The position numbers were made by a program, and so were the translations under genes. This document shows, piece by piece, positions 2,708 to 60,399 of a stretch of DNA of 64,000 nucleotides (position 1 is its first letter; every line of letters starts with the position of its first letter). The notes beneath the pieces were generated by a model. That model had not been told where the DNA came from and searched no databases. It saw nothing but the letters and a program-made list of their open reading frames with translations. Origin of the DNA: Parcubacteria bacterium C7867-005 (GTDB lineage Bacteria > Patescibacteriota > Minisyncoccia > Phycocordibacterales > Zambryskibacteraceae); the NCBI GenBank assembly GCA_001189165.1, contig LFCO01000001.1, positions 221,592 to 285,591 on the forward strand, in the 5' to 3' direction.

Positions 2708-2797
2708 TTGAGGCTATTTTAGCACAGTTAATTTCATACTTGACTTTTATCCCATTTGGTGCTATTATTAACGCAGACCATTCAAAGGAGACGTGTA

Positions 2798-3037
2798 ATG
2801 CGTATCAGCCCGACACTCAGAGTGATCAGGGACGCGTTCGTGTTCTACAAGGGATCCCTGCTCGTAGCCATGCTCGCAGCACCACTCTACCTTCTTGGTG
2901 GGATGTGCTTCGTCCGAGGCATCAAGCTCCTCGTCGAACCGATCTCGTACATGCCCGGCGCAGGAGCCATGCTCATCGCTGTCGGCGCAGTCATCTCGTT
3001 CTCCACCGCGCTCGGACATGTGTCCCTCCGCAAGTAG
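2798..3037 (+). CDS. Small (79 aa) two-TM membrane protein of unknown function, encoded in GC-rich islet 1. The ORF track gives 2756..3037, but the ATG at 2798 has an AAAGGAG Shine-Dalgarno 7 nt upstream.
   Basis: Hydrophobic stretches read LLVAMLAAPLYLLGG and GAMLIAVGAVISF. Third codon positions are GC-rich, with CTC leucines. A strong hairpin plus T-run lies downstream at 3137-3180 on the same strand. Confidence 0.45.
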   Translation: MRISPTLRVIRDAFVFYKGSLLVAMLAAPLYLLGGMCFVRGIKLLVEPISYMPGAGAMLIAVGAVISFSTALGHVSLRK

Positions 3038-3136
3038 CACCCTCACCCCCCCCCGCACATCCGTGCGGGGTTCAACGTATAGTAGACCGCAATGCGCCAC
3101 CTACCACCTACCCATCAACCTCTCCCCACCCTCTCT

Positions 3137-3165
3137 CCCGTGTCAACCTGGCAGGTTGACACGGG
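3137..3165. repeat. REP-like GC-rich palindrome, copy A. Copy B at 3794-3826 is the exact reverse complement.
   Basis: Copy A reads cccgtgtcaacctgGCaggttgacacggg. Copy B reads cccccgtgtcaacctgCCaggttgacacggggg. They differ only in the central loop bases, which shows inverted orientation. Confidence 0.7.
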
Positions 3166-3180
3166 GGTATCTTTTATTTG
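3137..3180 (+). terminator. Intrinsic terminator. It has a 13-bp perfect GC-rich stem (cccgtgtcaacct/aggttgacacggg) with a 3-nt loop, followed by tatcttttattt.
   Basis: Palindrome read directly from the sequence. The T-rich tract is on the plus strand only. Confidence 0.6.
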
Positions 3181-3210
3181 ACAGATAAGCAGTTTTATAT
3201 TATGGTAATA
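3176..3210 (+). promoter_or_regulatory. Candidate sigma70-type promoter for the 3348..3716 gene: TTGACA, a ~15-17 bp spacer, then TATTAT.
   Basis: tttgacagataagcagttttatattatgg lies immediately after the hairpin. Spacing was estimated by eye. Confidence 0.3.
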
Positions 3211-3347
3211 ACAGAAATTGGATTCTTGAGTTAGGCGCTTTGGCTGCATTTGTGTTGTTAAGGCGCTTAACTCACAGGATCCGATGGGGTCGCTGGTGAG
3301 TGTAAGCCCGCGAGCCCACGGGATGGGCGGTCCACAGGAGATACACC

Positions 3348-3716
3348 ATGTCCCCGCTCCCGCAGAACAACAGGTTCCTGAAGCTCACCCCAGAGAAGGC
3401 AGAGAGGGTGGCAGAGAACCTCCGCAAGAAGATCCAAGACAACCTCTGGCACCTCTCGGTTCCTGGGGATGGGGAGAATGAATACATTTCCAGGAAGCTC
3501 AACCAGCTCCAGGACATTCTCCGCCAGTTCCAGGAATTTGGTCACGAGGTGATCATCCTCGACGAGAGGGACTTCCCCGAACTCGCTGAGGCGATCGGGG
3601 TGCTCAAGCGCGGAGGTCTCAAGGATGAGATCCTCGACATCCTCTTCAGCCTCCTCGTGAAGTGCAAGGTTCCGAAGTTCGACGTTCTGAAGGAGAACAT
3701 TCTGAAGAACGCGTAA
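3348..3716 (+). CDS. Hypothetical 122-aa protein in GC-rich islet 1. Codon usage is strongly GC3-biased, rich in AGG, CTC, AAG and GAG.
   Basis: Intact ORF. It is followed by a 10-bp-stem hairpin (gagcccacag/ctgtgggctc) and ttcttatttatatata. It has no recognisable family. Confidence 0.5.
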   Translation: MSPLPQNNRFLKLTPEKAERVAENLRKKIQDNLWHLSVPGDGENEYISRKLNQLQDILRQFQEFGHEVIILDERDFPELAEAIGVLKRGGLKDEILDILFSLLVKCKVPKFDVLKENILKNA

Positions 3717-3732
3717 CCCGGCGAGCCCACGG

Positions 3733-3772
3733 AAGAGCCCACAGCTCCCTGTGGGCTCTTCTTATTTATATA
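3733..3772 (+). terminator. Intrinsic terminator downstream of the 3348..3716 gene.
   Basis: agagcccacagctccctgtgggctcttcttatttatatata. Confidence 0.6.
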
Positions 3773-3793
3773 TAGCACCTGAGCTCTTCCCCT

Positions 3794-3826
3794 CCCCCGT
3801 GTCAACCTGCCAGGTTGACACGGGGG
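3794..3826. repeat. REP-like palindrome copy B, in inverted orientation relative to copy A.
   Basis: 15-bp stem cccccgtgtcaacct/aggttgacacggggg with loop gcc. No flanking T-run. Confidence 0.7.
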
Positions 3827-3851
3827 CTAACATGGAAGGGTTGATGCAAGG

Positions 3852-4409
3852 CTAACTTGATCTTCTTAACATTAACTCAGGTTTCCCGGCGTTTTGCTCT
3901 GGTCCAAATTCTATCTTTAAACTTTTAAGAAGAGATCTTATTTCCTCCTTTGTGCTTGCAACCTCGTCATCTCCAACTTTTCCTATTTTTTCCACCTCCA
4001 TAAATAAACCGAGATTTTTTACATCTTCAAGAACAATTTCGTACTCCGGTGTTGTGTAGATATACTTTTCATTATCAATCCGTACTAATTCTTTTAATCC
4101 AAAATTTTCTACTATCTTGATTGCTGTTTCCAAATCCTCAATTTCTGTCTCATACTCATCTGAATGTGACCACTCTTCCAAAATAAAATGATCAATTTTA
4201 TATGCCATGGAGCATTTCTCACCTTTCTGTCTGATGCGGAAAGACGCAGATAGCCTGTTTTCTTCGTCTGGTTGCAGATTCTTCCTTAGAGGATCATAGA
4301 AATAAACATCTAAAGTTTTCTTTACTCCAAGCGAGTCAAAACCCCCTAAAGCTCTTAGTGCTGTCTCTTTATCACTCTTAACTTCTATGAGAATTTCGAT
4401 TTCCTTCAT
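3852..4409 (-). CDS. CYTH-domain protein (CyaB/thiamine-triphosphatase-like triphosphate tunnel metalloenzyme).
   Basis: N-terminal EIEILIEVK matches the CYTH ExExK signature. It is 185 aa and acidic. Confidence 0.6.
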   Translation of the reverse strand: MKEIEILIEVKSDKETALRALGGFDSLGVKKTLDVYFYDPLRKNLQPDEENRLSASFRIRQKGEKCSMAYKIDHFILEEWSHSDEYETEIEDLETAIKIVENFGLKELVRIDNEKYIYTTPEYEIVLEDVKNLGLFMEVEKIGKVGDDEVASTKEEIRSLLKSLKIEFGPEQNAGKPELMLRRSS

Positions 4410-4410
4410 T

Positions 4411-5664
4411 TTAATACCCCCTTAGTCTGTTTATCTTTTCGTGCTGGCGGATTTTTTCGTGGGCCTTGGCTTCGATCTGACGAATGCGTTCACGAGTGAC
4501 ACCGAATACCTTACCTACCTCTTCTAAAGTATGTGTATAGCCGTCGGTCAATCCGTGGCGCATTTCCAAAATCTTTCTTTCTTTTGGAGGAAGGTCGGAT
4601 AAAATCTCTTTGACTTGATCTTGGATAATCCTACGAGAAGATTCTTGATCTGGTGATAGGATTTTGTCATCGGCTAAGAAGTCTCCTAGTTTGGATTTAC
4701 CATCGTCACCATCATCACCAACCGGACTCTCGAGTGACACCGTGGACTGGTCGATCTTCTCAATCTGATAGATTTTATCTACATCGAGATTCATTTCCAT
4801 AGCTATCTCTTCCTGTAATGGTTCCCTACCCAAGTCCTGGGTTAATCGACGAACGACCTGTTTATACTTGGCAATAGTTTCAACCATGTGTACGGGCACA
4901 CGGATAGTACGAGACTGATCAGCAAGGGCGCGGGTGATGGCTTGGCGGATCCACCATGTAGCGTAGGTAGAGAATTTAAATCCTTTTGACCAGTCGAACT
5001 TATCTACAGCCTTAAATAGACCCAAGTTTCCTTCCTGAATCAGGTCAAGGAGAGTGAGGTCCGGTGAACGGTTAGCATACTTCTTGGCTATAGACACAAC
5101 CAAGCGTAGGTTCGCCTTTGCTAATAGGTTTTTAGCTTCCTCATCTCCTGCTTCGATCCTCTTGGCCAAATCCTTTTCCATACTTCCAGAAATGAGTGGG
5201 TACTGACCTATCTCCTTTAGATACATCTGTATAGAATCGTACGCGGAGTCTGATTTATTATAAGAATATTTTTTACCAGTTTCTTCTACTGGCATCTCGA
5301 GCAAACCTCCACTTTCCAGGATGTCTATACCTGATGTGTGTAGTTTTTCATACAACTCATCCAAGAAAATAATGTTCTCTTCGATAGTTGGAAACTCTTT
5401 TAGAATCTCATCATAAGTGACGAAACCCTTTTCTTTGCCTCGACTAATAAGTCGATTCATCCTTGTGTTGTCCTCTTGAGCCTTTTTTGATATCGGCCCT
5501 TTCTTTAGCTTGGCCTCTTTCTTTGGTTTTAAAATTTTAACCTTTGAAGTTTTTTTAACAGATTTTTTGACACCCTTAACCTTTTTTGCCACCTTCTTCA
5601 CCTTGACCACCTTTTTGGAGCTGGCCTGTTTGCGGCTATTCTTCTGTTTTTTATTTTTTGACAT
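4411..5664 (-). CDS. rpoD: RNA polymerase sigma-70 factor RpoD with a ~65-aa lysine-rich (histone H1-like) N-terminal tail.
   Basis: Region 2 reads ...[40 protein letters not shown]. Region 4 reads [23 protein letters not shown]. The N-terminus reads [30 protein letters not shown]. Confidence 0.95.
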
Positions 5665-5676
5665 TCGTTGGTTATA

Positions 5677-10925: not shown

Positions 10926-10930
10926 GGTCT

Positions 10931-14158: not shown

Positions 14159-14339
14159 GCACTCGCGGGCTTTTCGGCTCGTGCTTTTTTATAAAATTAA
14201 ACTATTAAGCAAAACGGAACTTTTAAACAAATCGCCTTGTTTTTCCCCTTTTTGCTTCGATTTGGTCGTAACTAAATCGTATTCGAAGTTATCGCAGAGT
14301 ATATATAAGACACTGTAACCTGTCAATCCCCTTATCCAC

Positions 14340-14660
14340 AAGAAAACCGCCCTAGAGCGGTCTGGGGTCACCTTTGCGGAGGCAGGCTGCTGAACGTCGC
14401 CCGCAGCACTGTCTCAAGCGTGGCTGCCCCCTTGAAGGGTGATGGACCCATCTTGGCACTGAGGTCCACTTCCGATGCGGTGGTGGGTCCAATGTATAAA
14501 CCCCCACATACGAATCGAAAGGTACTACCCTTCCCCGTACCCTCTGATTCTGCACCGGAACTGATGACAACACCGACCTTGTTCAAACACATCGTGTTGG
14601 TACTCATCTGCCCTCCGGTGAAAGGGTTGGTCCTGATAATATTGTACCAGAGAACAGTGC
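14340..14660 (-). ncRNA. Candidate structured RNA or cis-regulatory leader upstream of rpoB. The region is GC-rich (~58%), highly self-complementary and has no convincing ORF. The class is unknown.
   Basis: There are multiple nested complementary segments. These include caccgga/tccggtg, ggaccca/tgggtcc, gctgc/gcagc and ggtac/gtacc. A weak hairpin plus T-run lies at the 3' end on the minus strand (accgc tctagg gcggt tttct). The surrounding DNA is ~35% GC. Confidence 0.3.
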
Positions 14661-14668
14661 ACGATTAT

Positions 14669-15676
14669 CTACCTAGGTAAAGAAAACTCACCTTCAAACA
14701 ACACTCTCTTTTTGTGTTCAGCTGATAACTTGGAGGTTATCACGTCCATAGCATCATCAAAAGAATTCTCTTCTGGGAAATACAACTTTGATTTAAGCAT
14801 CTCTATGCCTATTATCTTGTAAGTAACTCGGTCGTCTGAGAGTACCAACCTCACTGTCAAACCCTGCCTAGTCTCTAAAGAAAAATCTTGATCAAAAATA
14901 AAGTTGCCAAGTGAATAGAAAATTGCCTTGTTTTTATAGATCTCTATTGGCTGTATGACATGCGGATGTGTACCAATAATGAGGTCGGCACCCGAATCAA
15001 CAAAAACATATCCCTTCTCTCTCTGGCTCTTACTTTCTTTTGTCGAATATTCTACGCCCCAATGAGCCAGAACAATCGTAAAGTCACATTCTGATTCGAT
15101 CGTCTGTATCTCTCTGACCGTGCTATCTATGTTCGGATTATAAAGTTCGTGATAACCAACAAAACAAACATATTCGTCTTTAATATTTACCCTCCTAGAC
15201 TGATTCTCATTATTCAAAACTGAACCAAAAGAGAAAATGCCTTCCTCGCCCAAATTATTTATAGTTTCCTCATACCCCTCTTCTCCAAAATCATATGCAT
15301 GATTGTTCGCAAGGCTCACACCATCAAATCCAAGAGATAGAAGGCTCGTGGCTACAGACGGATCAAATGTGAACCTTAAAATTTTATTGTTCTTTATAGC
15401 TATGGATTCGTTCTCTGTTATAGTCCCCTCCAAGTTACCTATGGTTAGATCCAGATCATCGAACAAACTTTTGACATCTGCGATCAGATACTCGAAACCC
15501 TGTTTCTCAGCGACTCTCCTAACATTCCTGTCTAGCATCATATCTCCTACGAAAAGGATCTCTGCACTACTCTCATGCAAAAAGCTATTTTGTGCCTGGT
15601 AAATTAACGTAGATGTCCTCCCGGATACAGCAACACCTAAACCAAGAACAATTAGTATTAGGATCAAAAGTCTCAT
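14669..15676 (-). CDS. CapA/PgsA-family metallophosphoesterase, the poly-gamma-glutamate capsule biosynthesis protein family.
   Basis: It has a signal/TM N-terminus and the motifs GNHAYDFG, AHWGVEY and GTHPHVIQP. Confidence 0.75.
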   Translation of the reverse strand: MRLLILILIVLGLGVAVSGRTSTLIYQAQNSFLHESSAEILFVGDMMLDRNVRRVAEKQGFEYLIADVKSLFDDLDLTIGNLEGTITENESIAIKNNKILRFTFDPSVATSLLSLGFDGVSLANNHAYDFGEEGYEETINNLGEEGIFSFGSVLNNENQSRRVNIKDEYVCFVGYHELYNPNIDSTVREIQTIESECDFTIVLAHWGVEYSTKESKSQREKGYVFVDSGADLIIGTHPHVIQPIEIYKNKAIFYSLGNFIFDQDFSLETRQGLTVRLVLSDDRVTYKIIGIEMLKSKLYFPEENSFDDAMDVITSKLSAEHKKRVLFEGEFSLPR

Positions 15677-16311: not shown

Positions 16312-16985
16312 TCTTCGATTTTGGCTTGGTGACCAGACAGGAGCACTTTGGGCACGGAGTATTTTTTGCCTTTATGTACGAATGATTCTGGTCTGGTGTA
16401 CACCTCGGATGAGGAGATTCTTCTTTCTTCGACTGAGTCAAAATTACCCAACACGCCCTCTACCTGACGGGCGACAACGTCGATGATGAGCATGGCTGGC
16501 AGTTCTCCGCCGGTTAATACAAAAGGTCCAATAGAAATGTCTTCTGTTTTAAAAATCTTTTTCACTCGGGCATCTATACCTTCGTATCTACCAGAAATGA
16601 TAACGATGTCCGTGTGTTTAGAAGCAATTCTCTCTGCGTATTGATTCGTAAATTGTTTACCATTTGGGGACAAGAAAATGATTTTCACATTCTTTTTCTT
16701 ACCCACCGCCTTCTCTATAGCCTTCACCACCGGCTCTGCTTGGATCACCATCCCCGGACCGCCTCCATACGGTGCACGATCGACACGAGCAAATTTATCT
16801 TTGGTAAAATTTCTTGGATTATAAAAGGAAACTTTTATTTTCTTGTCTTCTATGGCACGTTTTAATATCGACTCACCTAAATATGAATCAAAACTTTTCT
16901 CAAAAAGGGTGATGATATGAAAATGCATAAAGCTCGGAGCTTGCCCCGGACGACTAGTCCAGGTTGAGATCCTCCATCGCCTCAT
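16290..16985 (-). CDS. trmD: tRNA (guanine37-N1)-methyltransferase.
   Basis: SPOUT-fold motifs: HFHIITLFP-like N-terminus, GRYEGIDARV and VLTGGELPAM. Confidence 0.93.
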   Translation of the reverse strand: MRRWRISTWTSRPGQAPSFMHFHIITLFEKSFDSYLGESILKRAIEDKKIKVSFYNPRNFTKDKFARVDRAPYGGGPGMVIQAEPVVKAIEKAVGKKKNVKIIFLSPNGKQFTNQYAERIASKHTDIVIISGRYEGIDARVKKIFKTEDISIGPFVLTGGELPAMLIIDVVARQVEGVLGNFDSVEERRISSSEVYTRPESFVHKGKKYSVPKVLLSGHQAKIEEWKKKRK

Positions 16986-17301
16986 CTACGGTCTTGGTCG
17001 CATTCATCACTGGAGCGGGGCTGTGGGAGTAAGATTCTCTGGGAGTTGACCCTGCGGGTTCGTTTATTTTCAAATTCACACGAGCATTGTTCTTCATACC
17101 CACTACACGGAGGAGGATGCGGATAGCCTTGGCTGTGTTGCCTGAACGACCGATCACCTTTCCCATATCATCCGGATGCACATCGAGGGTCATGAGGACA
17201 CCCATCTCATCCACCGTCCTCTTTATCTTCACATCATTTGGATGCTCTACCAATGCCTTCACTACGTATTCTAAAAATTGTGTATCGTCTACCATAATCA
17301 A
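16954..17301 (-). CDS. KH-domain RNA-binding protein (YlqC/UPF0109-like).
   Basis: GKVIGRSGNTAKAIRILL KH motif. Its position between rpsP and trmD is the conserved synteny. Confidence 0.8.
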   Translation of the reverse strand: MIMVDDTQFLEYVVKALVEHPNDVKIKRTVDEMGVLMTLDVHPDDMGKVIGRSGNTAKAIRILLRVVGMKNNARVNLKINEPAGSTPRESYSHSPAPVMNATKTVDEAMEDLNLD

Positions 17302-17364
17302 ATCAGTTAAGGATAATCTGGAATACTCACAAGGAGTGAGTTGGGTGGTGTTTGGTACCCCGTT

Positions 17365-17844: not shown

Positions 17845-19823
17845 TGGCGTATCCTACCAAAAAGCCGAGCCTCGGTCAATATGGTATAGTTCTAGGAAAC
17901 ATGGAAAAAACCACAAATAGCCCACTAATAGGCACAATAAAGGTCACTGGTAAGGGAGTTGGGTACTTCACCAAACCAGATCTGGAAACAGATTATGAGA
18001 TACAGCCAGAAAATCTACTCACCGCACTAAATGGAGACCATGTCCGAATAGAGGTTCTGGAGCACGAAGTATATGGACGAAAACAGGCAAAAATCCTGGA
18101 GATACTCGAACGCAAGAAGATGGATTTCGTTGGAGTACTTGAGAAAAGCACGGGCGGATTCTTCTTGGTGCCAGACGACAAGAGAATGTACAGGGATATC
18201 TTTATCCCTGAGGCTAATAACATAGGAGCAAATGAGGGAGATAAGGTCCAGGCGCACATCATAAACTGGGTTGATCGGAGCAAGAGTCCGGAAGGCAAAG
18301 TTCTCCGCATTATAGGCAAGAAGGGTGAGCACAACGCAGAAATGCTCGGAATAGTCTATGAAAGCGGATTCGAGATCGACTTCCCAACCGCAGTCGAGGC
18401 AGAGGCTACTGCTTGGGTAGAAAAATACAAAAATGAGGATCACCTTAAAGATCGAAGGGACTTTAGAGAGACCACAACCTTCACCATCGACCCTGCAGAT
18501 GCCAAAGACTTCGACGATGCAATCTCTTTCAAAAAACTCGACAACGGTGATTTTGAAGTTGGTATACACATCGCAGATGTGTCTCATTTTGTCACCCCAA
18601 ACAGCGCTCTGGATAAAGAGGCAATCAAACGAGCCACTTCGATCTACCTAGTAGACCGAACGATCCCCATGCTCCCTGAAGTACTTTCAAATGATCTGTG
18701 TTCATTGAATGCGAATGAACCCAAATACGCCTTCTCTGCTGTATTCATCATAGACAAAGAAGCTCGTGTTAAGGAAAGATGGTTCGGTAAATCCCTTATC
18801 ATCTCCGACAAAAGATTTACATACGAAGAGGCACAGGAAGTTTTAGACAAAAAAGAAGGAGTGCTCGCAGAAGAGCTATTGGCTCTAAATGACCTCGCAT
18901 ATAAACTTCGTGCAGAAAAATTCAAGAATGGAGCAATCGAGTTTGAGACAGAAGAAGTGAAGTTCGAATTGGATACCAAAGGTAAACCAATCCGCGTCTA
19001 TAAAAAAACTCGCAAAGACACACATAAACTGATCGAAGATTTCATGTTGCTCGCGAACCGAGAGGTGGCCAAATATATGTTTGATGCAGGAATCAAAAAC
19101 CCAAAGATGGCGTTTGTATACAGAATCCACGATGCACCAAACAAAGAAAGAATCATGGACCTCGCTACTTTCGTCAAAGCGCTCGGCTTTGAACTAAAGA
19201 ACCAAGACGGAGAGACGACTGGAGAAGACATCAGTAGGATGCTCAAGTCAGTCGAGGGGTCACCCGCAGAGATGCTTATAAAAACCGCCGCCATCCGTTC
19301 TATGCAGAAAGCGATCTACTCTACTTCAAACATCGGGCACTTTGGCTTGGCTTTCGAATACTACACACACTTTACCTCTCCTATCCGTAGATACCCAGAT
19401 TTGATGGTGCATAGACTTGTACAAAGACATCTGACTGGTGGCAAGATTGAACAAGATGAAGTGATCAAATACCAAATGCTTTGTGATGTATCGACTGATA
19501 GAGAAATAGATGCCTCGGAAGCAGAGCGATCTTCAATCAAATACAAACAAGTTGAATACATGCAGGATCATATTGGCGAAGAATTCGATGCATCAGTATC
19601 TGGAGTCTCTGAATGGGGTGTATATGTAGAAGAAGTGAATACCAAAGCCGAAGGTATGGTCAAACTAAGAGATATGAATGACGATTTCTATGAATTGGTG
19701 GAGAAGGCGTATGCTATCGTTGGTAAAAACACAGGCAAGAAATATTCTCTTGGAGACAAAGTTAGAGTCAAGCTTGTCGCTTCTGATCCGGAACGCAAAA
19801 CCTTAGATTTTCAGTTTATTTAG
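17844..19823 (+). CDS. rnr: Ribonuclease R / RNase II-family 3'-5' exoribonuclease. The true start is possibly the internal Met at ~17901.
   Basis: RNB catalytic region with DPADAKDFDDAISF and a C-terminal S1 domain. Confidence 0.9.
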   Translation: MAYPTKKPSLGQYGIVLGNMEKTTNSPLIGTIKVTGKGVGYFTKPDLETDYEIQPENLLTALNGDHVRIEVLEHEVYGRKQAKILEILERKKMDFVGVLEKSTGGFFLVPDDKRMYRDIFIPEANNIGANEGDKVQAHIINWVDRSKSPEGKVLRIIGKKGEHNAEMLGIVYESGFEIDFPTAVEAEATAWVEKYKNEDHLKDRRDFRETTTFTIDPADAKDFDDAISFKKLDNGDFEVGIHIADVSHFVTPNSALDKEAIKRATSIYLVDRTIPMLPEVLSNDLCSLNANEPKYAFSAVFIIDKEARVKERWFGKSLIISDKRFTYEEAQEVLDKKEGVLAEELLALNDLAYKLRAEKFKNGAIEFETEEVKFELDTKGKPIRVYKKTRKDTHKLIEDFMLLANREVAKYMFDAGIKNPKMAFVYRIHDAPNKERIMDLATFVKALGFELKNQDGETTGEDISRMLKSVEGSPAEMLIKTAAIRSMQKAIYSTSNIGHFGLAFEYYTHFTSPIRRYPDLMVHRLVQRHLTGGKIEQDEVIKYQMLCDVSTDREIDASEAERSSIKYKQVEYMQDHIGEEFDASVSGVSEWGVYVEEVNTKAEGMVKLRDMNDDFYELVEKAYAIVGKNTGKKYSLGDKVRVKLVASDPERKTLDFQFI

Positions 19824-22068
19824 CTACTTCGGCAGCTTCGTCAAAAGAGATGGAGAGGAGTTTGGATATACCAGATGAACCCATCGTGACACCATAAATA
19901 ACCCCTGCACGACTCATGGTCTCTCTGTTGTGGGTGATGAGTATGAGTTGTGAGTGAGCTGAGAGCTTCTCTACCATATCTCCATATCGTTTGGAGTTAG
20001 CTTCATCAAGCGCGGCATCCGTCTCATCCAAGATAATAAATGGAGGGGGATTCACTTGAGAAATGGCAAACAGGAGAGCGATAGAAGTAAGAGCCCTTTC
20101 TCCGCCCGAAAGCATCAACAGTCCTCTGATCTTCTTCCTAGGAAGATTCACAGATATGTCCAGACCTTCTTCAACTACCTCTGCGTCACCATCCAAATCA
20201 TCACCGATATCTGCATCTGCGTCTTCGATCAAAACATCTTTTTTCTTTTTCTTTTCTTTGGTTAATACAAGATGAGCATCACCACCTCCGAACATGGTAT
20301 TAAATAAACCATTGAATTCTGAATTTATTTTATCTATACCCGAAGAAAACTCTACAGCCAACCTCTCTTCTAGATCCTTGATCAATGAGTGTAGAGACTC
20401 TGCAGATTTCTCTAGATCCAAAAGTTCACGAGTCAAAAATTCATCCCTCTCGGTCACATCTTTGTACTCTTTCAATACCTCCTCGCTGCCAGAGAGACCT
20501 GAATCCTCTAACCGAATTTTGAGTTTCTCTATTTCTCTCTTTCTTTCTTCTTGAATTTTTCTATCCTCTGCTACCACACTTACCTCATCCCCCACATCGA
20601 TACTTTTGAATTGTAGTGCCTCTCGCCCGACAAGAAAACCAACCTCCTCAACCTCCCTCATCAATTCATCTGCATCCTTCTTTAGACTTTCCTCTCTGAC
20701 TTTGATGATATTGAGCTTGGATATAAGATCGTTCTCTTCAGACATAATTCTGAAAACAGCTTTCTCAGCATCACGGCCAGAGTCTTTACCTTCTTCTATT
20801 TTTTGTTTAAGTTCTTCGTACTGAATGCGGAGATCGGCTTCTCTCTTTTCTGCTTTTTGGATCTCTGTTTCGAGTTTAGCTTTTTCTTTTTGGAGCTCTT
20901 TTATATGCTCCTCTGCTTCAACAATCAGACTCGAATCGGCTGATTCTTTATGGCCTTTAATAAATAGGAGGAGTTTACTGACGATGTTTTTGATAACAGA
21001 AACAGGACTCTCATTATCCTCTGGTTTGATTTCCTTTAGAGATTCTGCAAATTCCTCTACCTCTTTCAAACGTATCATCTTGTGTTCGTCAGAAGTGTGG
21101 AGCTCTCTCTGTTTGCGGATCACCCTCTCTTCGGCGGCAAGCGAGCCCTCGACCCTACCGAACTCTCGTGTTAATCCGTCTTTATGTGCTCTGGCGCCCG
21201 TGATCTCTGCTTCAAGGTCAAGTATGAGATAGTCCTTTTTGTCTTCCTTTGCTAATTTTTCTAATGTTGCTTTGGCAACAGCCAACTCTCTGCTTAAATC
21301 CTTTAGAGAAGATTCGATTGGTGTACGCTCGGATTCGAGGGCTGTTTTAGTAAACCCAACATAAAGATCCTCTCGTTTAAAATAATCTCTGGAAAGATTT
21401 AGTAGTTCATCTTTCATTCCCACAGCTTTCTCTACCTTCTCTACTTGTTTTCGGAGAAACCTAAGGTGGGGGGCAATTTCCTTTCGGAGTGATTCAACCT
21501 GAGCGATGTTCTCAAAAGTTTTCTTGAGTTTACGATCACTCTCTACTCTTTTGTATTGATAAATACGCAAACCGAGCGCATCTTCAATCATGGATTTTCT
21601 TTCTTTAGATGATGAGTTGAGTATTTTGTCTGCTTCACCTTGAGAGATGATGTGGTGACCCGATGCTCCGATATGAGCACGAAGAAGTAGCTCGATCACA
21701 TCCTTTAACCTCACACTACTACCGTTTATAAGGTAGTCGTTCACCCCATCTCTATGGACCACGCGTTCTATGGTCACCTCTGGGAAATCTATACCGAATA
21801 CTTGATTTGAATTATCAAAGGTTACCTTAACCGAAGCACGGTTTGCTCTCGACTCATTCCCCCCACCATTAAATATAAGATCCTCTCCCTTTTTACCGCG
21901 GAGTGATTTGATGGATTGTTCTCCTAGGACAAAACGAAATGCTTCGGCTACGTTTGATTTACCAGAGCCGTTTGGTCCGACTATAGCAGATACGGACGAG
22001 TTAAAAACGAGCTCGCTCGACTTGGCAAACGATTTAAAACCAGATAATTCAATAGATTTTAAATACAT
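19816..22068 (-). CDS. smc: SMC-like chromosome segregation ATPase. At 750 aa it is unusually short and has no recognisable hinge domain.
   Basis: N-terminus reads MYLKSIELSGFKSFA...GPNGSGKSNV. C-terminal signature reads LSGGERALTSIALLF...ILDETDAALD. The middle is a long coiled coil. Confidence 0.8.
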   Translation of the reverse strand: MYLKSIELSGFKSFAKSSELVFNSSVSAIVGPNGSGKSNVAEAFRFVLGEQSIKSLRGKKGEDLIFNGGGNESRANRASVKVTFDNSNQVFGIDFPEVTIERVVHRDGVNDYLINGSSVRLKDVIELLLRAHIGASGHHIISQGEADKILNSSSKERKSMIEDALGLRIYQYKRVESDRKLKKTFENIAQVESLRKEIAPHLRFLRKQVEKVEKAVGMKDELLNLSRDYFKREDLYVGFTKTALESERTPIESSLKDLSRELAVAKATLEKLAKEDKKDYLILDLEAEITGARAHKDGLTREFGRVEGSLAAEERVIRKQRELHTSDEHKMIRLKEVEEFAESLKEIKPEDNESPVSVIKNIVSKLLLFIKGHKESADSSLIVEAEEHIKELQKEKAKLETEIQKAEKREADLRIQYEELKQKIEEGKDSGRDAEKAVFRIMSEENDLISKLNIIKVREESLKKDADELMREVEEVGFLVGREALQFKSIDVGDEVSVVAEDRKIQEERKREIEKLKIRLEDSGLSGSEEVLKEYKDVTERDEFLTRELLDLEKSAESLHSLIKDLEERLAVEFSSGIDKINSEFNGLFNTMFGGGDAHLVLTKEKKKKKDVLIEDADADIGDDLDGDAEVVEEGLDISVNLPRKKIRGLLMLSGGERALTSIALLFAISQVNPPPFIILDETDAALDEANSKRYGDMVEKLSAHSQLILITHNRETMSRAGVIYGVTMGSSGISKLLSISFDEAAEVAK

Positions 22069-22104
22069 GAATTATCAAATTATAACACGTTGAACTATCA
22101 GATT

Positions 22105-22794: not shown

Positions 22795-22809
22795 GGGTCT
22801 TGTATACCT

Positions 22810-23724
22810 TTACTTACTCTTTTCTGCAAGAAGAGTGATGGCCTTGGTCACTATGGGAAGAATATCATCATAAAAATTCAGATCGAGTATTTCGGAAAGT
22901 TTGAACCATCTGACATCGTCCAATCCCCCTTTTTCTTCTTTCTTTTCCAAGGTTAGTTCTTGGTAAGGTGCTTCCGCCAAAAAATAAACAACTTTTTTCA
23001 AAATTTTTCCTTTCTCTGGATGATAGGTAGAGTATGCATTTTCACCGAGTTTCTCTTTGACTTCTATGGGTACACCAAGCTCCTCTCGAGCTTCTCTAAT
23101 AAGGCCTTCTTCTTCAGTTTCCTCGCCCTCGAGCTTACCTTTGGTCAGTGTCCAATGGCCAAATATGTCGTGTACGAATGCGAGGTAAGTTGTACCCTCA
23201 TCGTGTGCATATACAACAGCTCCAGCAAGACGCTCTACGGGCAGTTCAGAATCGGGCACGTTACCATACTTTTTCTTTGGTCGAGGCTTCTCATCTTTAC
23301 CCGGTTCACCCATTTCTTTATAAACAGCCCCCAAAACACCATTAACAAATTTACCCGAAGTCTCTCCGCCAAATGATTTGGCTAACTCTATCGCTTCATT
23401 GATAGCTACCTTTGGTGGAACTTCAGCCCGATCAGAAAACAATAATTCTGATAAACCAATACGCAAGATATTTCTGTCTACAATAGATATTTTCTCTAAA
23501 GGCCAGTCAGGTGCAGCCTTCTCTATGAGCAGATCAAGGTCTTTTTGTTTGTCTAATACTTGGTTCAATAATCCATCCATAAAAGGACGATCATTCGAAC
23601 CTGGAGCAAATTCAGCTAAATTTCTTTCAAAAATAGAGTCAACGTTCTCTTTTTTATTTTTATCAAAATCCCATTCAAATAAGGTCTGAAGTACAACTGA
23701 GCGTGATAGGTGACGTTGTGCCAT
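22810..23724 (-). CDS. nusB: NusB transcription antitermination factor fused in frame to a C-terminal NUDIX hydrolase domain.
   Basis: NusB core reads VPPKVAINEAIELAKSFGGETSGKFVNGVLG. An exact Nudix box reads GKLEGEETEEEGLIREAREELGV. It is a single uninterrupted 304-aa ORF. Confidence 0.85.
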   Translation of the reverse strand: MAQRHLSRSVVLQTLFEWDFDKNKKENVDSIFERNLAEFAPGSNDRPFMDGLLNQVLDKQKDLDLLIEKAAPDWPLEKISIVDRNILRIGLSELLFSDRAEVPPKVAINEAIELAKSFGGETSGKFVNGVLGAVYKEMGEPGKDEKPRPKKKYGNVPDSELPVERLAGAVVYAHDEGTTYLAFVHDIFGHWTLTKGKLEGEETEEEGLIREAREELGVPIEVKEKLGENAYSTYHPEKGKILKKVVYFLAEAPYQELTLEKKEEKGGLDDVRWFKLSEILDLNFYDDILPIVTKAITLLAEKSK

Positions 23725-23776
23725 AAAAAGAGCAGAGAAAACTTAGATATAAATACTTTCTATCAAACACCAAAGA

Positions 23777-23998
23777 CTAGCGAGCGTTAGCCTTCTCTTT
23801 GGTCTTTGATGCCTTTCGAACCGCACGAGCCCCCATATCCACAACCTTACGACCACGATAGATTCCTGTGGTTGGGCTCATACGGTGGCGGAGATGCGGG
23901 TTACCCGAAGAATCCTCGGCTATAGCCGGATTAGAGAGAGCGTGGTGAGATCGCCTTTGTTTAGTCTGCGACCTCGTGTGTCTCATTCGTACTGTCAT
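23777..23998 (-). CDS. rpmF: 50S ribosomal protein L32.
   Basis: RRSHHALS...GNPHLRHRMSPTTGIYRGRKVV matches the L32 family pattern. Confidence 0.85.
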   Translation of the reverse strand: MTVRMRHTRSQTKQRRSHHALSNPAIAEDSSGNPHLRHRMSPTTGIYRGRKVVDMGARAVRKASKTKEKANAR

Positions 23999-24070
23999 AA
24001 AAAGAGTCTACCAAAAACCTTGATAAAAAGAAAGTCCGCCACCCAAAGATGGGTAACGGACCTCTTCTGA

Positions 24071-24538
24071 CTACGCGTGGACCAGGGACCTCAAACGCTT
24101 GAGGGCTTTCCCAGCGGCGACCCCATGTTCCCCGAACAAGACCGTCTGAGCCTCCTCGAGGCTGATCAGATACGGGGCAGACATCCAGTCGTTCCCGATG
24201 ATGATCTCTTCGGTGCGCATGGTCCCCACCATGGCCGAACGCTCGACCAGATAGAAACACTTGATATGCCCGTTCGCGGACGGCGGCGGTGAATGGATCA
24301 GGAGCCCGTCGTTCCTCGATCGGATTGACATGTTGGTCTCCTCGGGGACTTCGCGGTCTCGAGTATCGAGCACGCTTTGGTCCTCCGGGTGACCTTCTTC
24401 AGTGCCGCCAGGGGCCTTCACCTTGGTTGGCCCCTTCGTGCCGTCCTTCTTGACCACAGCGCATTTCATCACCCAGACCATCCACTCACCATCGATGAGT
24501 TCGACGATCAGAGCAGCGGCAAACCAGCGAGCGGCCAC
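24071..24538 (-). CDS. NUDIX hydrolase encoded in GC-rich islet 2. The GTG start at 24538 was verified, but the ATG at 24481 is a plausible alternative start.
   Basis: GG...E...REV.EET Nudix-box-like GGTEEGHPEDQSVLDTRDREVPEETN. GC is ~60% against a ~40% background. Confidence 0.6.
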   Translation of the reverse strand: MAARWFAAALIVELIDGEWMVWVMKCAVVKKDGTKGPTKVKAPGGTEEGHPEDQSVLDTRDREVPEETNMSIRSRNDGLLIHSPPPSANGHIKCFYLVERSAMVGTMRTEEIIIGNDWMSAPYLISLEEAQTVLFGEHGVAAGKALKRLRSLVHA

Positions 24539-24594
24539 GTGACCTCCAGTCAGAAGTAAATGAGCGAAATTCGCAGTATGCGAAGTTTGCCTTT

Positions 24595-24623
24595 ATAATA
24601 TCACTATTTTATATAAAAGTCAA
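24595..24623 (-). promoter_or_regulatory. Sigma70-like promoter on the minus strand for the islet-2 NUDIX gene: TTGACT, a 17-bp spacer, then TATTAT.
   Basis: The minus strand reads cTTGACTtttatataaaatagtgaTATTATaaagg. The -35 overlaps the 3' end of rnhB. Confidence 0.45.
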
Positions 24624-25196: not shown

Positions 25197-25199
25197 CTC

Positions 25200-25682
25200 T
25201 TAAAGCGGGTTACAAACACAATAATAGGCATTGGATGATGCGGTGCACCAATTATTTACCCCTGACGCCCACGGTCTACACGAACCAGGATAACCAGTTG
25301 ATGCGGGGGAGGCTTCCAAAGTCGTGACGAGTAAGCCACCAATAGATTGCCCTGTATAATAGTTATAATACTGATATGTATGATTTGTCGGAGCAACAGG
25401 AACTGAGCTTAAAAAACCCTCAGACACAAGCTGTTGCGCCATGCTATCAAAATTTTGTGTATATGGACCGTTCGGCCCAACTACTGTCTGATTTGGGTAA
25501 GCATTGTATTTTTCTCTATATAAAAATAAAGCGGTTTTTATTTGATTAAACTGAGCAATAACCCTAGCATCTCTAGATTTTGCACGTGCAGTGCCCAAGG
25601 AGCCCAGAACAACTGAAGATAAGAAACCGATGATTGAAATGACAACCATAAGTTCTATTAGCGTGAATCCTTTTTTTATCAT
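25200..25682 (-). CDS. Type IV pilin / pseudopilin with an N-terminal prepilin methylation motif.
   Basis: KGFTLIELMVVISIIG class III signal. A cysteine pair sits in the C-terminal region. Confidence 0.85.
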   Translation of the reverse strand: MIKKGFTLIELMVVISIIGFLSSVVLGSLGTARAKSRDARVIAQFNQIKTALFLYREKYNAYPNQTVVGPNGPYTQNFDSMAQQLVSEGFLSSVPVAPTNHTYQYYNYYTGQSIGGLLVTTLEASPASTGYPGSCRPWASGVNNWCTASSNAYYCVCNPL

Positions 25683-25933
25683 AGGAATTTTGTCTGATCA
25701 ACCTGCCTAATATCAATTTCATTTGATCCACCTCCACCATTGAAAACATTGAAAGAAATAGAAAAAATAGTGCCGACGACAAAAAGGATAGTTGAACCTA
25801 TAAACACAATGTTTGCCTGCACCTGATTTTTCACTAAACCTGTCCTTATGACTAAGCCAGTCAGACCCCTATAAATACGTTGGCTACGACTATATTGATT
25901 GACTATATCTTCTTCAAATTGGACATTGCTCAT
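25679..25933 (-). CDS. Small hypothetical membrane protein (one TM, Gly-run).
   Basis: ANIVFIGSTILFVVGTIFSISF. No family recognised. Confidence 0.35.
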   Translation of the reverse strand: MSNVQFEEDIVNQYSRSQRIYRGLTGLVIRTGLVKNQVQANIVFIGSTILFVVGTIFSISFNVFNGGGGSNEIDIRQVDQTKFL

Positions 25934-25973
25934 GGTCTTATGTGGGGACTCTTGTCTATATTATACTATCCAT

Positions 25974-28900: not shown

Positions 28901-29159
28901 AGAGATGAAAGAAGGAGCAGATTGTGTCGTGGCAGGTATTGTTATAGGTATTAGAGAAGTCACAACAAAAAAGGGAGACAGGATGGTTTTCGTAGAGTTA
29001 GAAGATTTTACTGGGACGCTCGATGTCGTAGTCTTCCCTAAGATATTTGAGGAGTTCAAAAGCTTCTTGGTATTAGAAAACTGCATTGCTATCAAAGGAA
29101 AGGTGTCCAAAAGAAACGATGAGACCTCTATGATCGCTGACAAAATCAAGGCCTTATAG
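25974..29159 (+). CDS. dnaE: DNA polymerase III alpha subunit. The ORF track extends it to 25899, but the conserved N-terminus starts at the ATG at 25974.
   Basis: MSKLTHLHTHSHYSLLEALP PHP-domain start, a polymerase core and a C-terminal OB fold. Confidence 0.93.
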   Translation: MSKLTHLHTHSHYSLLEALPKIPDLVKTAKKMGMESLALTDSGNLYGAIEFYKECRDAGIKPIIGLDAYVAVRGLKDKEARIDNQRSRLVLLAKDETGYRNLIKLVTISNFEGFYYKPRIDKELLEKYADGLVVIMPSFSGEVIKTLTPGDEDRAKRTIEWYKKIFGEDNFFLEITHHKEIGGHEEKMVRLLKFAEETKTKIVAAHDVYYLDPEDKPARDTMLSIQSHVGKDTVRSMNDEEENFSFLSTKEMAKLFKDTPEALENIEVIVSKCNLELKLGSWVFPKYIVESGKTYDDELRELVYKGFEYRNVKKTKEVLDRVEYELKVIKDKGYSPYFLVVGDLLHYAHDHGILTNIRGSVAGSMVTYLARITNVNPIEYKLPFERFLNPDRPSAPDIDMDFADNRRDEIIEYARTKYGRDNVAQIGTFGTMMARGAVRDVARAMNFAYGVGDQIAKLIPVGAQGFPMTLDRAMKENADLKKLYNSDPDTKTIIDMAKKIEGCARHISVHAAGVVISPGPLTDYTPLQFDTKGENKIITQYDMYSIEEAGLLKFDFLGIKNLSIIADAIDRIKKIEGTVVDIENIPLDDKKTFAMLSRGETEGTFQLNGDGMTQFLVKLKPSSIHDINAMVALYRPGPIETIPSYIERKHNPELIKYLDPRMKEFLDFSYGVIVYQDDVLLTAIRLAGYNWVEADKLRKAMGKKIPEVMQAEKEKLTKGFIEFGKLTPELSEKIWKLIEPFAAYGFNKAHAASYGRMAYQTSYLKANFPAIYMSAVLTADSGDVERIGVMIAECKRMGIEVLPPSVNESYSQFTVVNDPPHPYKIRFGLTTIKNFGQGISTSIIEERKRGGKFKTLVDFLDRIKDKNLNKKSLEALIRSGAMDEFGDRGILGGNIENLLAYNKERARESGEQESLFGLMSDTSTLPTLKLIEAKEATKKEKLLWEKDLLGLYISGHPLEEFKDKMEKGDNTIKKLIEMKEGADCVVAGIVIGIREVTTKKGDRMVFVELEDFTGTLDVVVFPKIFEEFKSFLVLENCIAIKGKVSKRNDETSMIADKIKAL

Positions 29160-29197
29160 CCTTTGAAATAGGCCTTATTTATTGATACAATTTTGAA

Positions 29198-30439
29198 ATG
29201 ACTGAACAGGAACCGCAAGATAGAGACCATAAGAAAATAGGTAGAGAACTCGAGCTGTTTACCTTTAGTGATACTGTCGGTAAGGGCCTCCCCCTTTGGC
29301 TACCAAAAGGAGCGACTGTAAGACGAGAGCTCGAGAGGTTTATTATCGACGAAGAGATTAAGCGGGGATATTTGCATGTACGCACACCCGACATCGCTAA
29401 ACTCGATTTATATAGAAAATCTGGACACTATCCATATTATAAAGATAGCCAATACGCGCCGATAGTCATAGATGATGAAGAATTCCTCTTGAGGCCGATG
29501 ACTTGTCCCCACCACTTTGAGCTGTACCTAACCAAACCACACAGCTATAGGGAGTTACCTATGCGAATCGCAGAACTTGCTCAGCTTTATAGATACGAGC
29601 AGTCTGGCGAGCTCATGGGTCTCCAAAGAGTGAGAACCTTCTGCCTTGCAGATGCTCATATAATTTGTGCATCTGAAGAACAGGCCGTAGAAGAAATCGG
29701 AGGAGCTCTCGACCTCATAGAGTACGTCACCTCTGTGTTCGGCCTGAAACTTGATATTGATTATAGATATAGACTCTCTCTTGGAGATAGGGCTAACACA
29801 GAGAAATATTATAAAAATGACAATGCTTGGGAAAAGGGAGAGGGCCTGCTAAGAGATTTGATGAAAAAACGCGGTTCTAAGTTTGAAGAAGCCAAAGACG
29901 AAGCTGCTTTCTATGGACCAAAAATAGATATTCAGATGAAAAACGCAAACGGCAAGGAAGATACTGCTTTCACTGTGCAGTATGATTTCTGTATGCCTGA
30001 GAGGTTCGACCTGACATATGTTGGCGAGGATGGTAAGCCACACAGAGCCTTTGTTGTTCACCGCTCTTCTATCGGAGCTATAGAGCGAATTATGGCTTTC
30101 CTTATAGAAAAATACATGGGCGCATTCCCCCTTTGGCTCGCACCGGTGCAAGTCAAAGTTCTACCTATTGGGGAAAGCCAGCTTCAATATGCAAAAGAAG
30201 TTACAAATAGGTTGAAACTTGAAAATATCCGCGCGGAGTTGGATGAATCGAATGAAAGTTTGGGTAAAAAAATACGCAATGCGAAGACTGAAAAGATACC
30301 TTACATGCTAATTATAGGCGACAAAGAAATAGCTGAAAACAAAGTGACACTTGAGTCCAGAGATAGTGGCAACCTCGGACAGCTGTCACTCGATGAACTC
30401 GTGGAGAAACTAAAAAGTGAAATAAAAGATAGAAAATAA
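29198..30439 (+). CDS. thrS: Threonyl-tRNA synthetase, catalytic plus anticodon-binding domains only. It lacks the N-terminal TGS and editing domains.
   Basis: It starts at DRDHKKIGRELELF, the beginning of the class II core in canonical ThrRS. It has class II motifs and a C-terminal anticodon-binding domain. It is 413 aa against ~640 aa for the canonical enzyme. Confidence 0.8.
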   Translation: MTEQEPQDRDHKKIGRELELFTFSDTVGKGLPLWLPKGATVRRELERFIIDEEIKRGYLHVRTPDIAKLDLYRKSGHYPYYKDSQYAPIVIDDEEFLLRPMTCPHHFELYLTKPHSYRELPMRIAELAQLYRYEQSGELMGLQRVRTFCLADAHIICASEEQAVEEIGGALDLIEYVTSVFGLKLDIDYRYRLSLGDRANTEKYYKNDNAWEKGEGLLRDLMKKRGSKFEEAKDEAAFYGPKIDIQMKNANGKEDTAFTVQYDFCMPERFDLTYVGEDGKPHRAFVVHRSSIGAIERIMAFLIEKYMGAFPLWLAPVQVKVLPIGESQLQYAKEVTNRLKLENIRAELDESNESLGKKIRNAKTEKIPYMLIIGDKEIAENKVTLESRDSGNLGQLSLDELVEKLKSEIKDRK

Positions 30440-30444
30440 GAAAG

Positions 30445-30466
30445 CGAGTCACTAGGACTCGCCTTG
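30445..30466. terminator. Bidirectional hairpin (gcgagtc acta g gactcgc) between convergent thrS and the islet-3 gene. On the minus strand it is followed by tttcttatttt.
   Basis: Read directly from the sequence. Confidence 0.5.
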
Positions 30467-30467
30467 A

Positions 30468-30758
30468 TCAACCCCGAGGCGTAGGTTGATCTGGTGCTTG
30501 GGCTGATGGAATGTCCTGACGATATTTCTGCTTCCTCTCCATCTCGCTCATCTTGAAGGGGCAGGAGGTGTGTCCGCACTCCCCAACGCATTCATGGGCG
30601 AGGAACACCTTGGGGCATTCAGGGCACGCCTCATCCACCCTGCCTTCGAGTACTGCCGCAGAATGGACGACTCTCTCGCCCTCGTGCATTGCAAGGACCC
30701 TAACTGCAATCCTCTCTCGAACATTCTCCTGATCGCTCTTGGTGATGTGGATCACCAT
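30468..30758 (-). CDS. Hypothetical 96-aa Cys-rich (6 Cys, CPECP...CVGECGHTSCPF) protein in GC-rich islet 3. It is a putative zinc-ribbon-like small protein.
   Basis: Intact ORF with AGG/AAG/GAG-rich codons and a TGA stop. A terminator hairpin follows on the minus strand. Confidence 0.4.
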   Translation of the reverse strand: MVIHITKSDQENVRERIAVRVLAMHEGERVVHSAAVLEGRVDEACPECPKVFLAHECVGECGHTSCPFKMSEMERKQKYRQDIPSAQAPDQPTPRG

Positions 30759-30815
30759 AGAGACCTCCGGAATGGGTGGACTTTGGGTCTGTTAGTTTAA
30801 TAACACAAATAATAT

Positions 30816-37296: not shown

Positions 37297-37372
37297 CTGG
37301 AGCCACCTCCCAGATTTGAACTGGGGACCTTCGCTTTACAAAAGCGTTGCTCTACCAACTGAGCTAAGGTGG
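37297..37372 (-). tRNA. tRNA-Thr (anticodon TGT), with the CCA end encoded.
   Basis: Minus strand reads GCCACCTTAGCTCAGTTGGTAGAGCAACGCTTTTGTAAAGCGAAGGTCCCCAGTTCAAATCTGGGAGGTGGCTCCA. It has a 7-bp acceptor stem, a GCTC/GAGC D-stem and a TTCAAAT T-loop. Confidence 0.9.
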
Positions 37373-37384
37373 CGTCGGTCTATC

Positions 37385-60391: not shown

Positions 60392-60399
60392 ATGACAAA

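Follow-up and report, generated by a model that had tools for sequence, protein, structure and literature searches.

The window discussed here is a 64,000-nt stretch of DNA from Parcubacteria bacterium C7867-005, a 563-kb metagenome-assembled genome (MAG) of 42% G+C content (GC) from Hanford groundwater (PMC4508563). Its sequence was matched to contig DGYO01000004.1 of assembly GCA_002396705.1. The GC of the window is 42.8% (200-nt windows, mean 0.428, sd 0.052). There are four islets of elevated GC represented in it, and they hold five small open reading frames (ORFs) of 79-155 aa, I1a, I1b, I2, I3, and I4 (Table 1). All five are located at gene-gene junctions, UvrD/sigma70, PGA_cap/rpoB, RNaseHII/L32, and GyrB/ThrRS, which are made up of highly conserved informational genes. 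An original prediction for this DNA had proposed such islets, each with one or two very small genes at a junction. Both points were borne out. The outlier segments match the coordinates it gave, at GC 51.5-54.5%, and all four hold small ORFs. The left third of islet 3, however, is rpmF, a core gene in nearly all relatives, and is no part of a cassette.

Table 1. Islets, genes, and signals in the window (position 1 is its first nucleotide). GC1/2/3, GC at first, second, and third codon positions; CDS, coding sequence; SD, Shine-Dalgarno sequence.
Feature	Positions	Strand	Basis or measure
Islet 1	2741-3917		GC 54.5%, peak 0.645 (200-nt windows)
I1a predicted promoter, TTGACT-17-TATTAT with TG extension	2740-2768	+	consensus scan; region 81% identical in L003
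I1a CDS, 79 aa, two hydrophobic transmembrane-like segments	2798-3037	+	AGGAG SD 7 nt upstream; GC1/2/3 0.59/0.44/0.76
Hairpin CCCCGCAC-ATCC-GTGCGGGG downstream of I1a	3051-3070	+	sequence reading; same stem in L003
REP-like perfect palindrome, copy B	3135-3167	.	also scores as terminator; absent at L003 site
I1b predicted promoter, TTGACA-17-TATGGT, overlapping TATTAT	3178-3206	+	consensus scan
I1b 5' leader RNA (conserved core 3262-3330)	3217-3347	+	folding z = -5.45
I1b CDS, 122 aa	3348-3716	+	GC1/2/3 0.60/0.25/0.81
I1b intrinsic terminator, 14-bp stem then T-run	3731-3762	+	terminator scan
REP-like palindrome, copy C	3794-3826	.	repeat search
Islet 2	14245-14640		GC 52%, peak 0.605 (200-nt windows)
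I2 terminator hairpin, ACCGC...GCGGT then TTTTCTT	14340-14363	-	sequence reading; terminal hairpin in computed fold
I2 ORF, 79 aa, Gly/Ser/Thr-rich, GGAGGG SD	14368-14607	-	GC1/2/3 0.49/0.57/0.60
I2 putative promoter, TAGATA-17-TACAAT with TG extension	14641-14672	-	read by eye, not reported by consensus scan; overlaps PGA_cap 3' end
Islet 3	23754-24610		GC 54%, peak 0.625 (200-nt windows)
rpmF (ribosomal protein L32), left third of islet 3	23777-23998	-	core gene; GC3 0.50
I3 intrinsic terminator, 15 pairs	24031-24064	-	terminator scan
I3 CDS, 155 aa, divergent Nudix-fold (predicted), GTG start, GGAGG SD	24071-24538	-	GC1/2/3 0.61/0.44/0.76
I3 predicted promoter, TTGACT-17-TATTAT with TG extension	24595-24623	-	consensus scan
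Islet 4	30417-30812		GC 51.5%, peak 0.585 (200-nt windows)
I4 terminator, shared with convergent ThrRS gene	30441-30465	-	terminator scan
I4 CDS, 96 aa, Cys-rich (CPEC...C...C...C), GGAGG SD	30468-30758	-	GC1/2/3 0.63/0.43/0.62
I4 putative promoter, TTGACG-17-TTATTA	30798-30826	-	read by eye, below scan threshold

The base composition and codon usage of the islets deviate from those of the host. GC at third codon positions (GC3) is 0.60-0.81 in the five ORFs vs. 0.390±0.038 in 41 host genes of the window. In composition the islets are thus foreign to the host core, as had been claimed. With the sampling noise of short genes allowed for, the z scores are 5.5 (I1a), 7.2 (I1b), 3.1 (I2), 6.8 (I3), and 3.7 (I4). 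Islets 2 and 4 are the weakest of the four. The islets use CTC at 0.70, AAG at 0.90, ATC at 0.82, and AGG at 0.38, and GGG is frequent. This usage correlates best with that of core genes in GC-rich Paceibacteria (r = 0.86-0.88). It differs from the CTG, CGC, and GGC usage that is typical of high-GC bacteria. Two core genes of the window are also moderately above 0.39 in GC3, a KhpA-like KH-domain gene (16954-17301, reverse strand, 0.57) and rpmF. Therefore, there is some GC3 heterogeneity among core genes too.

The islet genes share a common layout. An AT-rich promoter of the sigma-70 type comes first, followed by a Shine-Dalgarno sequence of the GGAGG type, a single GC-rich ORF, and a terminator hairpin that is also GC-rich. 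Promoters were predicted by consensus scan for I1a, I1b, and I3, and those of I2 and I4 were read by eye. The promoter motif of I1a recurs at I3, with 76% similarity between the two regions over 41 nt. In all five ORFs, a start codon and a correctly spaced Shine-Dalgarno sequence can be read from the sequence. Hairpin terminators were found by scan for I1a, I1b, I3, and I4, and that of I2 was read from the sequence. These had been described as donor-type terminators. The hairpins are present, but nothing marks them as donor-type. None of the five proteins matched a Pfam, PHROG, or PADLOC profile.

The islets were compared with 80 syntenic Paceibacteria loci, L007-L086, that are collinear with the informational-gene cluster of the window. 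The gene order GyrB-ThrRS-DnaE-RNaseHII-L32-NusB-RNaseIII-SMC-RNaseR-S16-trmD-rpoB is kept in these loci, and the gaps between the genes are variable. Despite the same gene order, core-gene GC3 spans 0.21-0.87 among them. For this clade, the evolution of genomic GC is unusually rapid. Islets of high GC at junctions recur in the 80 loci, above all in the AT-rich ones. The view that such islets are not a standard feature of genomes of the candidate phyla radiation (CPR) is therefore wrong for this clade. Some junctions are empty. In L016, L017, and L019, only ~30-60 bp separate RNaseHII from L32, and in L085 GyrB and ThrRS are 34 bp apart. The islets thus lie between genes that are directly adjacent in some relatives.

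Close pairs of relatives indicate how fast the junctions change. The core of L012 and L018 (GC 30-38%) is 80-85% identical in nucleotides, and their SMC proteins are 94% identical. None of their junction gaps can be aligned, and the gaps are 47-55% GC in both genomes. The local-alignment z scores are 0.5-3.7 for four gaps vs. 138-223 for the flanking core genes. At one junction, L012 possesses a 698-bp cassette (20127-20824) with a promoter, a gene for a 183-aa sigma factor of the extracytoplasmic function (ECF) type, and a terminator, where L018 has 27 bp (18386-18412). L015 and L016 are 89% identical in nucleotides, and cassettes of 1023 bp and 980 bp (GC 0.51 and 0.55) face 49 bp and 69 bp in this pair. 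Non-homologous or absent junction sequence was found in these two pairs and in ten further close pairs. No target-site duplications or terminal repeats were seen at the boundaries in L012/L018 and L015/L016. The core-gene junctions of this clade are hypervariable sites with gain, loss, and replacement. L003, a locus in a related genome of 49% GC (GCA_013565675.1), contains another islet at a different junction. This is a 54-aa ORF with GC3 0.85 (3419-3583, reverse strand) between TruB and HisRS, which are adjacent in the window genome.

The variable segments also differ in GC from the core, and the difference depends on the host. In 120 segments from 12 close genome pairs, segment GC minus core GC is +0.066 in AT-rich hosts, about zero in mid-GC hosts, and -0.037 in GC-rich hosts (r = -0.56). 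Cassette composition therefore does not follow that of the host and is drawn to a mean for the whole clade. The measure is independent of reading frame. It was preferred to a GC3 regression on unfiltered junction ORFs, which is confounded by wrong-frame ORFs, and a filter of GC3 > GC2 for junction ORFs was dropped because it is biased in AT-rich hosts.

The recurrence of islets in the relatives bears on whether those of the window could be assembly or binning chimeras from GC-richer genomes in the same sample. The MAG does come from a community that also contained Parcubacteria of 36-56% GC (PMC4508563). Against this, the islet edges coincide with promoter and terminator boundaries between intact genes, and the same architecture is found in dozens of independent relatives. 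For I2, I3, and I4, the protein was found on 4-5 assembled contigs each, and for I1b it was found on 3, with the same neighbors in every case. The exact I2 protein was called on 4 contigs, and I4 on 5 in the same context. The JGI and NCBI contigs are identical over 20.5 kb. Assembly error, which the original prediction had named as a possible undoing of the islets, is unlikely as their source, and the chimera explanation as a whole is hardly credible.

The I3 gene is the one islet gene for which a family could be assigned. A word-indexed search of 5.8 billion proteins found nothing beyond the cluster of I3 itself. Exhaustive HMMER searching with I3 gave 51 proteins of ~150 aa each at E <= 0.001, its own copy counted. 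Of 36 aligned family sequences, 31 match the Nudix family PF00293 (best E 5.9e-10), and the window copy itself is below Pfam detection. The family profile matched only Nudix chains in the PDB. The AlphaFold2 model of I3 has a predicted local distance difference test score (pLDDT) of 97.2 and a predicted template modeling score of 0.90. Its top 50 Foldseek matches in the PDB are all Nudix proteins (E ~1e-6). The catalytic REVPEE core (R62-E63-V-P-E66-E67) is retained, with R62 and E67 invariant in the family and E63 nearly so. As modeled, I3 is a divergent Nudix hydrolase. It resembles the Nudix superfamily in predicted fold and core motif. It is unlike typical members in that the spacing of its box is longer than in the canonical GX5EX7REUXEEXGU and the window copy has N instead of the final G. 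Two genes away, the core NusB gene (22810-23724, reverse strand) is fused to a NUDIX domain.

Genes of the I3 family are present at the same RNaseHII/L32 junction in at least 11 of the 80 loci. Their GC3 is elevated in 10 of 11 relatives, with offsets of +0.12 to +0.37 in AT-rich hosts. Identity within the family is 26-42% between genomes whose core proteins are 88-94% identical. The junction Nudix proteins of L012 and L018 are 26% identical, and their third positions agree at 0.24, the random level, vs. 0.58-0.70 in the flanking genes. Plain vertical orthology of the junction Nudix genes was rejected by the L012/L018 and L007/L008 comparisons. Members of this family either diverge extremely fast or are replaced.

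The I1b gene deviates in the opposite direction. Only three entries were found for it in the 5.8 billion proteins, and only two other homologous lineages are represented. A metagenome scan for further relatives gave only the L003 contig that was already known. The AlphaFold2 model has five helices (pLDDT 77), and it has no match in the PDB. In L003 the arrangement is as in the window, UvrD, an 80-aa ORF, the I1b orthologue, and sigma70. The two I1b genes are 79% identical in nucleotides vs. 66-75% for nearby core genes, the proteins are 61% identical, and the 3' untranslated regions (UTRs) are 88% identical. The synonymous divergence (dS) is ~0.54 and its ratio with the nonsynonymous divergence (dN/dS) is ~0.49. 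The length of 122 codons is kept, and the flanking genes are saturated. At conserved residues the same codon is used at 0.79 vs. 0.56-0.62 expected at saturation with codon bias allowed for (P ~4e-4). Judging from these comparisons, I1b may have been shared more recently than the genomes diverged, or it may be constrained at the RNA level. Its GC3 is 0.81 in the window, 0.82 in L003, and 0.64 in the third lineage, L005, where the upstream region is 31% GC. The neighboring genes have GC3 of 0.32-0.47 in the window genome and 0.45-0.62 in L003.

The I1b transcript is strongly structured by computed folding. Against shuffled controls, the z score was -8.5 over its full length and -3.5 over the CDS, with the leader in between (Table 1). 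Of the 68 nt in the leader core, 63 are identical in L003 (9916-9984). The core is also present in L005 (196-260) and L006 (191-255), and compensatory changes were found across three lineages. Two mutually exclusive hairpins can be formed. No Rfam family matched the leader. A covariance model built on it matched only sites upstream of I1b homologues, and a leader RNA common to the cassettes was rejected on that ground. The I1b leader is a candidate new cis-regulatory RNA, resting on only three distinct sequences.

I1b shares islet 1 with I1a, whose positional analogue in L003 is 80 aa long and likewise has two hydrophobic segments, with only 27% aa identity. The original prediction of a repetitive extragenic palindromic (REP)-like sequence in one islet was confirmed. 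The perfect palindrome CCCGTGTCAACCTGSCAGGTTGACACGGGGG, 31-33 nt long, is present twice in the window, where no copy is expected by chance, downstream of I1a and of I1b. A third copy is located just outside the window (L001 6345-6367). The three copies lie within ~4.2 kb, each 3' of a gene, and are the count in ~70 kb of sequence. The palindrome contains TTGACA. It was not found in 88 other loci, which include the 80 syntenic relatives, or in viral contigs. It could be a REP-like terminator or operator. Like REP repeats, it is a perfect palindrome repeated downstream of genes and may act as a bidirectional terminator. Unlike them, it has only these three known copies within 4.2 kb, and no transposase is known to go with it. 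Islet 1 is adjoined by an AT-rich CYTH-domain gene (3852-4409, reverse strand, GC3 0.32) that is missing at this position in L003. This difference is an indel of host-like composition at the islet 1 junction.

Less can be said of I2 and I4. No homologue of I2 was found in the 80 relatives. Its transcript folds with z ~ -3, and its GC pattern by codon position is atypical for a CDS, so the coding status of I2 is uncertain. I4 is an ORFan. The search of 5.8 billion proteins gave only its own cluster, and no homologue was found at its site in the relatives. Elsewhere in the window, where regional GC is ~0.50-0.53, a 390-aa antisense ORF (60392-61564, forward strand) is located within an 1186-aa Thr/Ser-rich surface-protein gene (60400-63960, reverse strand). 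It is probably a spurious ORF in low-complexity sequence.

Structured RNA genes are the classic cause of GC islands in AT-rich genomes. The only RNA found in the window with ARAGORN and Rfam 15 is a tRNA-Thr (37298-37373), which is far from the islets. Relaxed Rfam searches of islets 1 and 2 gave best matches far below threshold and nothing credible. Thus, rRNA, tRNA, and known non-coding RNA were ruled out as the source of the islets. The islets could instead be structured non-coding RNA genes with spurious ORFs, as long ORFs can arise in every frame of GC-rich sequence, the codon-position pattern of I2 is not that of a typical gene, and the I1b leader is truly a structured RNA. This we consider very improbable. 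GC3 is well above GC2 in I1a, I1b, I3, and I4, and all five ORFs have correctly spaced Shine-Dalgarno sequences and start codons. The confident Nudix model of I3, the conserved length and dN/dS of I1b, and the lack of an Rfam match also argue against it.

The original prediction had further raised a specific uptake mechanism, such as natural transformation by way of the adjacent pilin, or host-derived DNA as a possible source. As a rival explanation, the islets would be a recent acquisition from an unrelated high-GC bacterium or the host of the symbiont, brought in by natural transformation with the signals of the donor kept. Type IV pili and competence genes are common in CPR bacteria, and a pilin gene is present in the window (25200-25682). 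This gene is a conserved neighbor in several relatives. The strongly atypical composition and codon usage and the ORFan genes would also fit. Nevertheless, foreign uptake appears quite improbable, and no evidence was found for a donor of either kind. In 5.8 billion proteins, no homologues of I1b, I3, or I4 were found outside Paceibacteria-type contexts, and the exhaustive profile search gave only the small Nudix family. I1b and an analogue of I1a are present at the same site in L003, as are members of the I3 family at their junction in relatives. The promoters are AT-rich, consensus-like, and of host type, and that of I1a is conserved in L003. Leucine is encoded by CTC rather than CTG, and AGG and GGG are frequent. 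Viral contigs gave no match for I1b, I4, or the palindrome, and a phage origin was rejected for this reason. The original interpretation thus holds in part. The DNA is mobile, and in composition it is foreign to the core, without evidence for an unrelated donor or an origin in the host.

The islets could also be vertically inherited, lineage-specific small genes whose GC-rich synonymous sites and UTRs are maintained, for instance by selection on mRNA structure or expression, or by GC-biased gene conversion where junctions are prone to recombine. This is a possible but rather unlikely explanation, and it partly overlaps with the one that we favor below. It is consistent with the synteny of I1b, its leader, its terminator, and the I1a promoter in L003. 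It also agrees with the high GC3 of I1b in both genomes despite lower neighbors and in L005 below an AT-rich upstream region, and with the elevated GC3 of the I3 family. The structure of the I1b transcript and its synonymous conservation above the saturation expectation point the same way. RNA structure was rejected as a general cause of GC-richness, because the CDSs of I1a, I3, and I4 fold like shuffled controls (z = -0.2, -1.6, and -0.7). Translational selection for GC-ending codons is unlikely because highly expressed core genes (rpoB, rpoC, S2, S16, EF-Ts, and GAPDH) have ordinary GC3. The variable segments lack GC enrichment in GC-rich hosts. Finally, unrelated sequence occupies the same junctions in close pairs, and this cannot be divergence in place.

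The explanation that we favor, with somewhat more confidence than doubt, treats the islets as autonomous, moron-like cassettes that occupy hypervariable junctions of core genes and circulate within the gene pool of the Paceibacteria. Each unit would combine one small GC-rich ORF with signals of its own, an AT-rich sigma-70 promoter of host type and a strong Shine-Dalgarno sequence in front and a hairpin terminator behind. The core genes would pass vertically and follow the mutational GC bias of each lineage, while the content of the junctions would be gained, lost, or swapped for unrelated or anciently diverged sequence. The route is probably recombination with DNA of other clade members after uptake, with the conserved flanking genes serving as homology arms. 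The islets would be conspicuous at 43% GC because their composition mirrors a GC-richer shared gene pool and not the AT drift of the host. The cargo would be mostly small lineage-restricted proteins, such as the Nudix protein, the protein with two hydrophobic segments, the five-helix protein with its leader RNA, and the Cys-rich protein, and in relatives an ECF sigma factor. The anatomy of the units, their synteny, their replacement and presence or absence in close relatives, and their compositional decoupling were observed. From these we infer the recombination mechanism, the direction of transfer, and the expression of the cassettes. Within-phylum exchange is reported to be the dominant form of horizontal gene transfer (HGT) in Patescibacteria (PMC12455944). 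Searches of the literature found such exchange reported, and the cassette-at-junction pattern was not found described.

The GC-richness may stem from the composition of the pool that the cassettes came from, or from a constraint on these particular genes. Import from a pool is favored because the GC offsets vanish or reverse in GC-rich hosts. A gene-specific constraint is favored because I1b and the Nudix family keep a high GC3 in each AT-rich host that was examined, and because the transcript of I1b is so structured. The latter weighs against exchange within the pool, and so do several other points. No near-identical donor copy was found for any islet of the window, and no transfer event is directly documented for C7867-005. 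Among the available relatives, even the one nearest to the window genome has only ~75% identity in SMC, and therefore replacement at the junctions of the window would rest on analogy with closer pairs. The negative offsets in GC-rich hosts may partly stem from AT-rich intergenic spacers. Boundary repeats, an integrase, or another recombination signature were not seen at the L012/L018 and L015/L016 boundaries. A reading of the list of window ORFs of >=150 aa showed no integrase, and no profile scan was made. A bolder and distinctly unlikely possibility is that Paceibacteria keep a layer of single-gene cassettes, each with a promoter, that come from a GC-richer mobile pool, either an extrachromosomal element or a transformation network, and dock between informational genes without an integrase or att signature. 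In this scheme the core of the I1b leader would represent a new class of cis-regulatory RNA, possibly a riboswitch.

The islets can be compared with known systems. A moron, a concept attributed to Hendrix and Juhala, is a lone gene that brings a promoter and a factor-independent terminator of its own, is located between genes that are adjacent in relatives, and deviates from them in composition. The islets share with phage morons their own predicted promoter and terminator, the insertion between genes adjacent in relatives, and the deviant base composition. In contrast to phage morons, they are chromosomal in a CPR bacterium and have neighbors such as rpoB/C, gyrB, dnaE, and smc, with no phage genes near and no viral homologues. 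They work like morons and are not members of the phage-moron class.

Chromosomal HGT hotspots, or flexible genomic islets, are characterized by variable content at a few fixed intervals between core genes. The islets of the window are similar in that they are found at fixed core-gene intervals, that much of their cargo has no known function, and that the donors are probably relatives. They differ in their very high density, as almost all junctions in a 30-kb cluster of informational genes are hotspots. DNA that has been acquired tends to be AT-richer than its host, whereas these cassettes are GC-richer. They are also of single-gene scale (0.3-1 kb) as opposed to multi-kb islands (~10 kb on average, PMC12455944). 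Integron cassettes are likewise small single-ORF units with high turnover, sometimes followed by a palindrome, which is imperfect in integrons. Unlike these, the islets are scattered outside any array, each with its own predicted promoter, and the palindrome is present at one islet only and absent from relatives. The islets are a variant of phage morons and of HGT hotspots flanked by core genes, at the scale of one gene and with a shifted GC.

The genomes of CPR bacteria, or Patescibacteria, are usually described as streamlined and static, and their variable genes are thought to mediate interaction with hosts. The present analysis suggests that in one clade of Paceibacteria even the most conserved informational cluster is interleaved with small, independently expressed genes that turn over quickly and whose composition is uncoupled from the host. 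It also indicates that a compositional outlier alone does not imply a foreign donor. If true, GC outliers at core-gene junctions would list the flexible genes, probably related to interaction or defense, of uncultured ultra-small bacteria, and the analysis would yield one candidate new regulatory RNA. The clade would also lend itself to measurements of gene flow and amelioration under natural conditions, in lineages with a fast-shifting GC.

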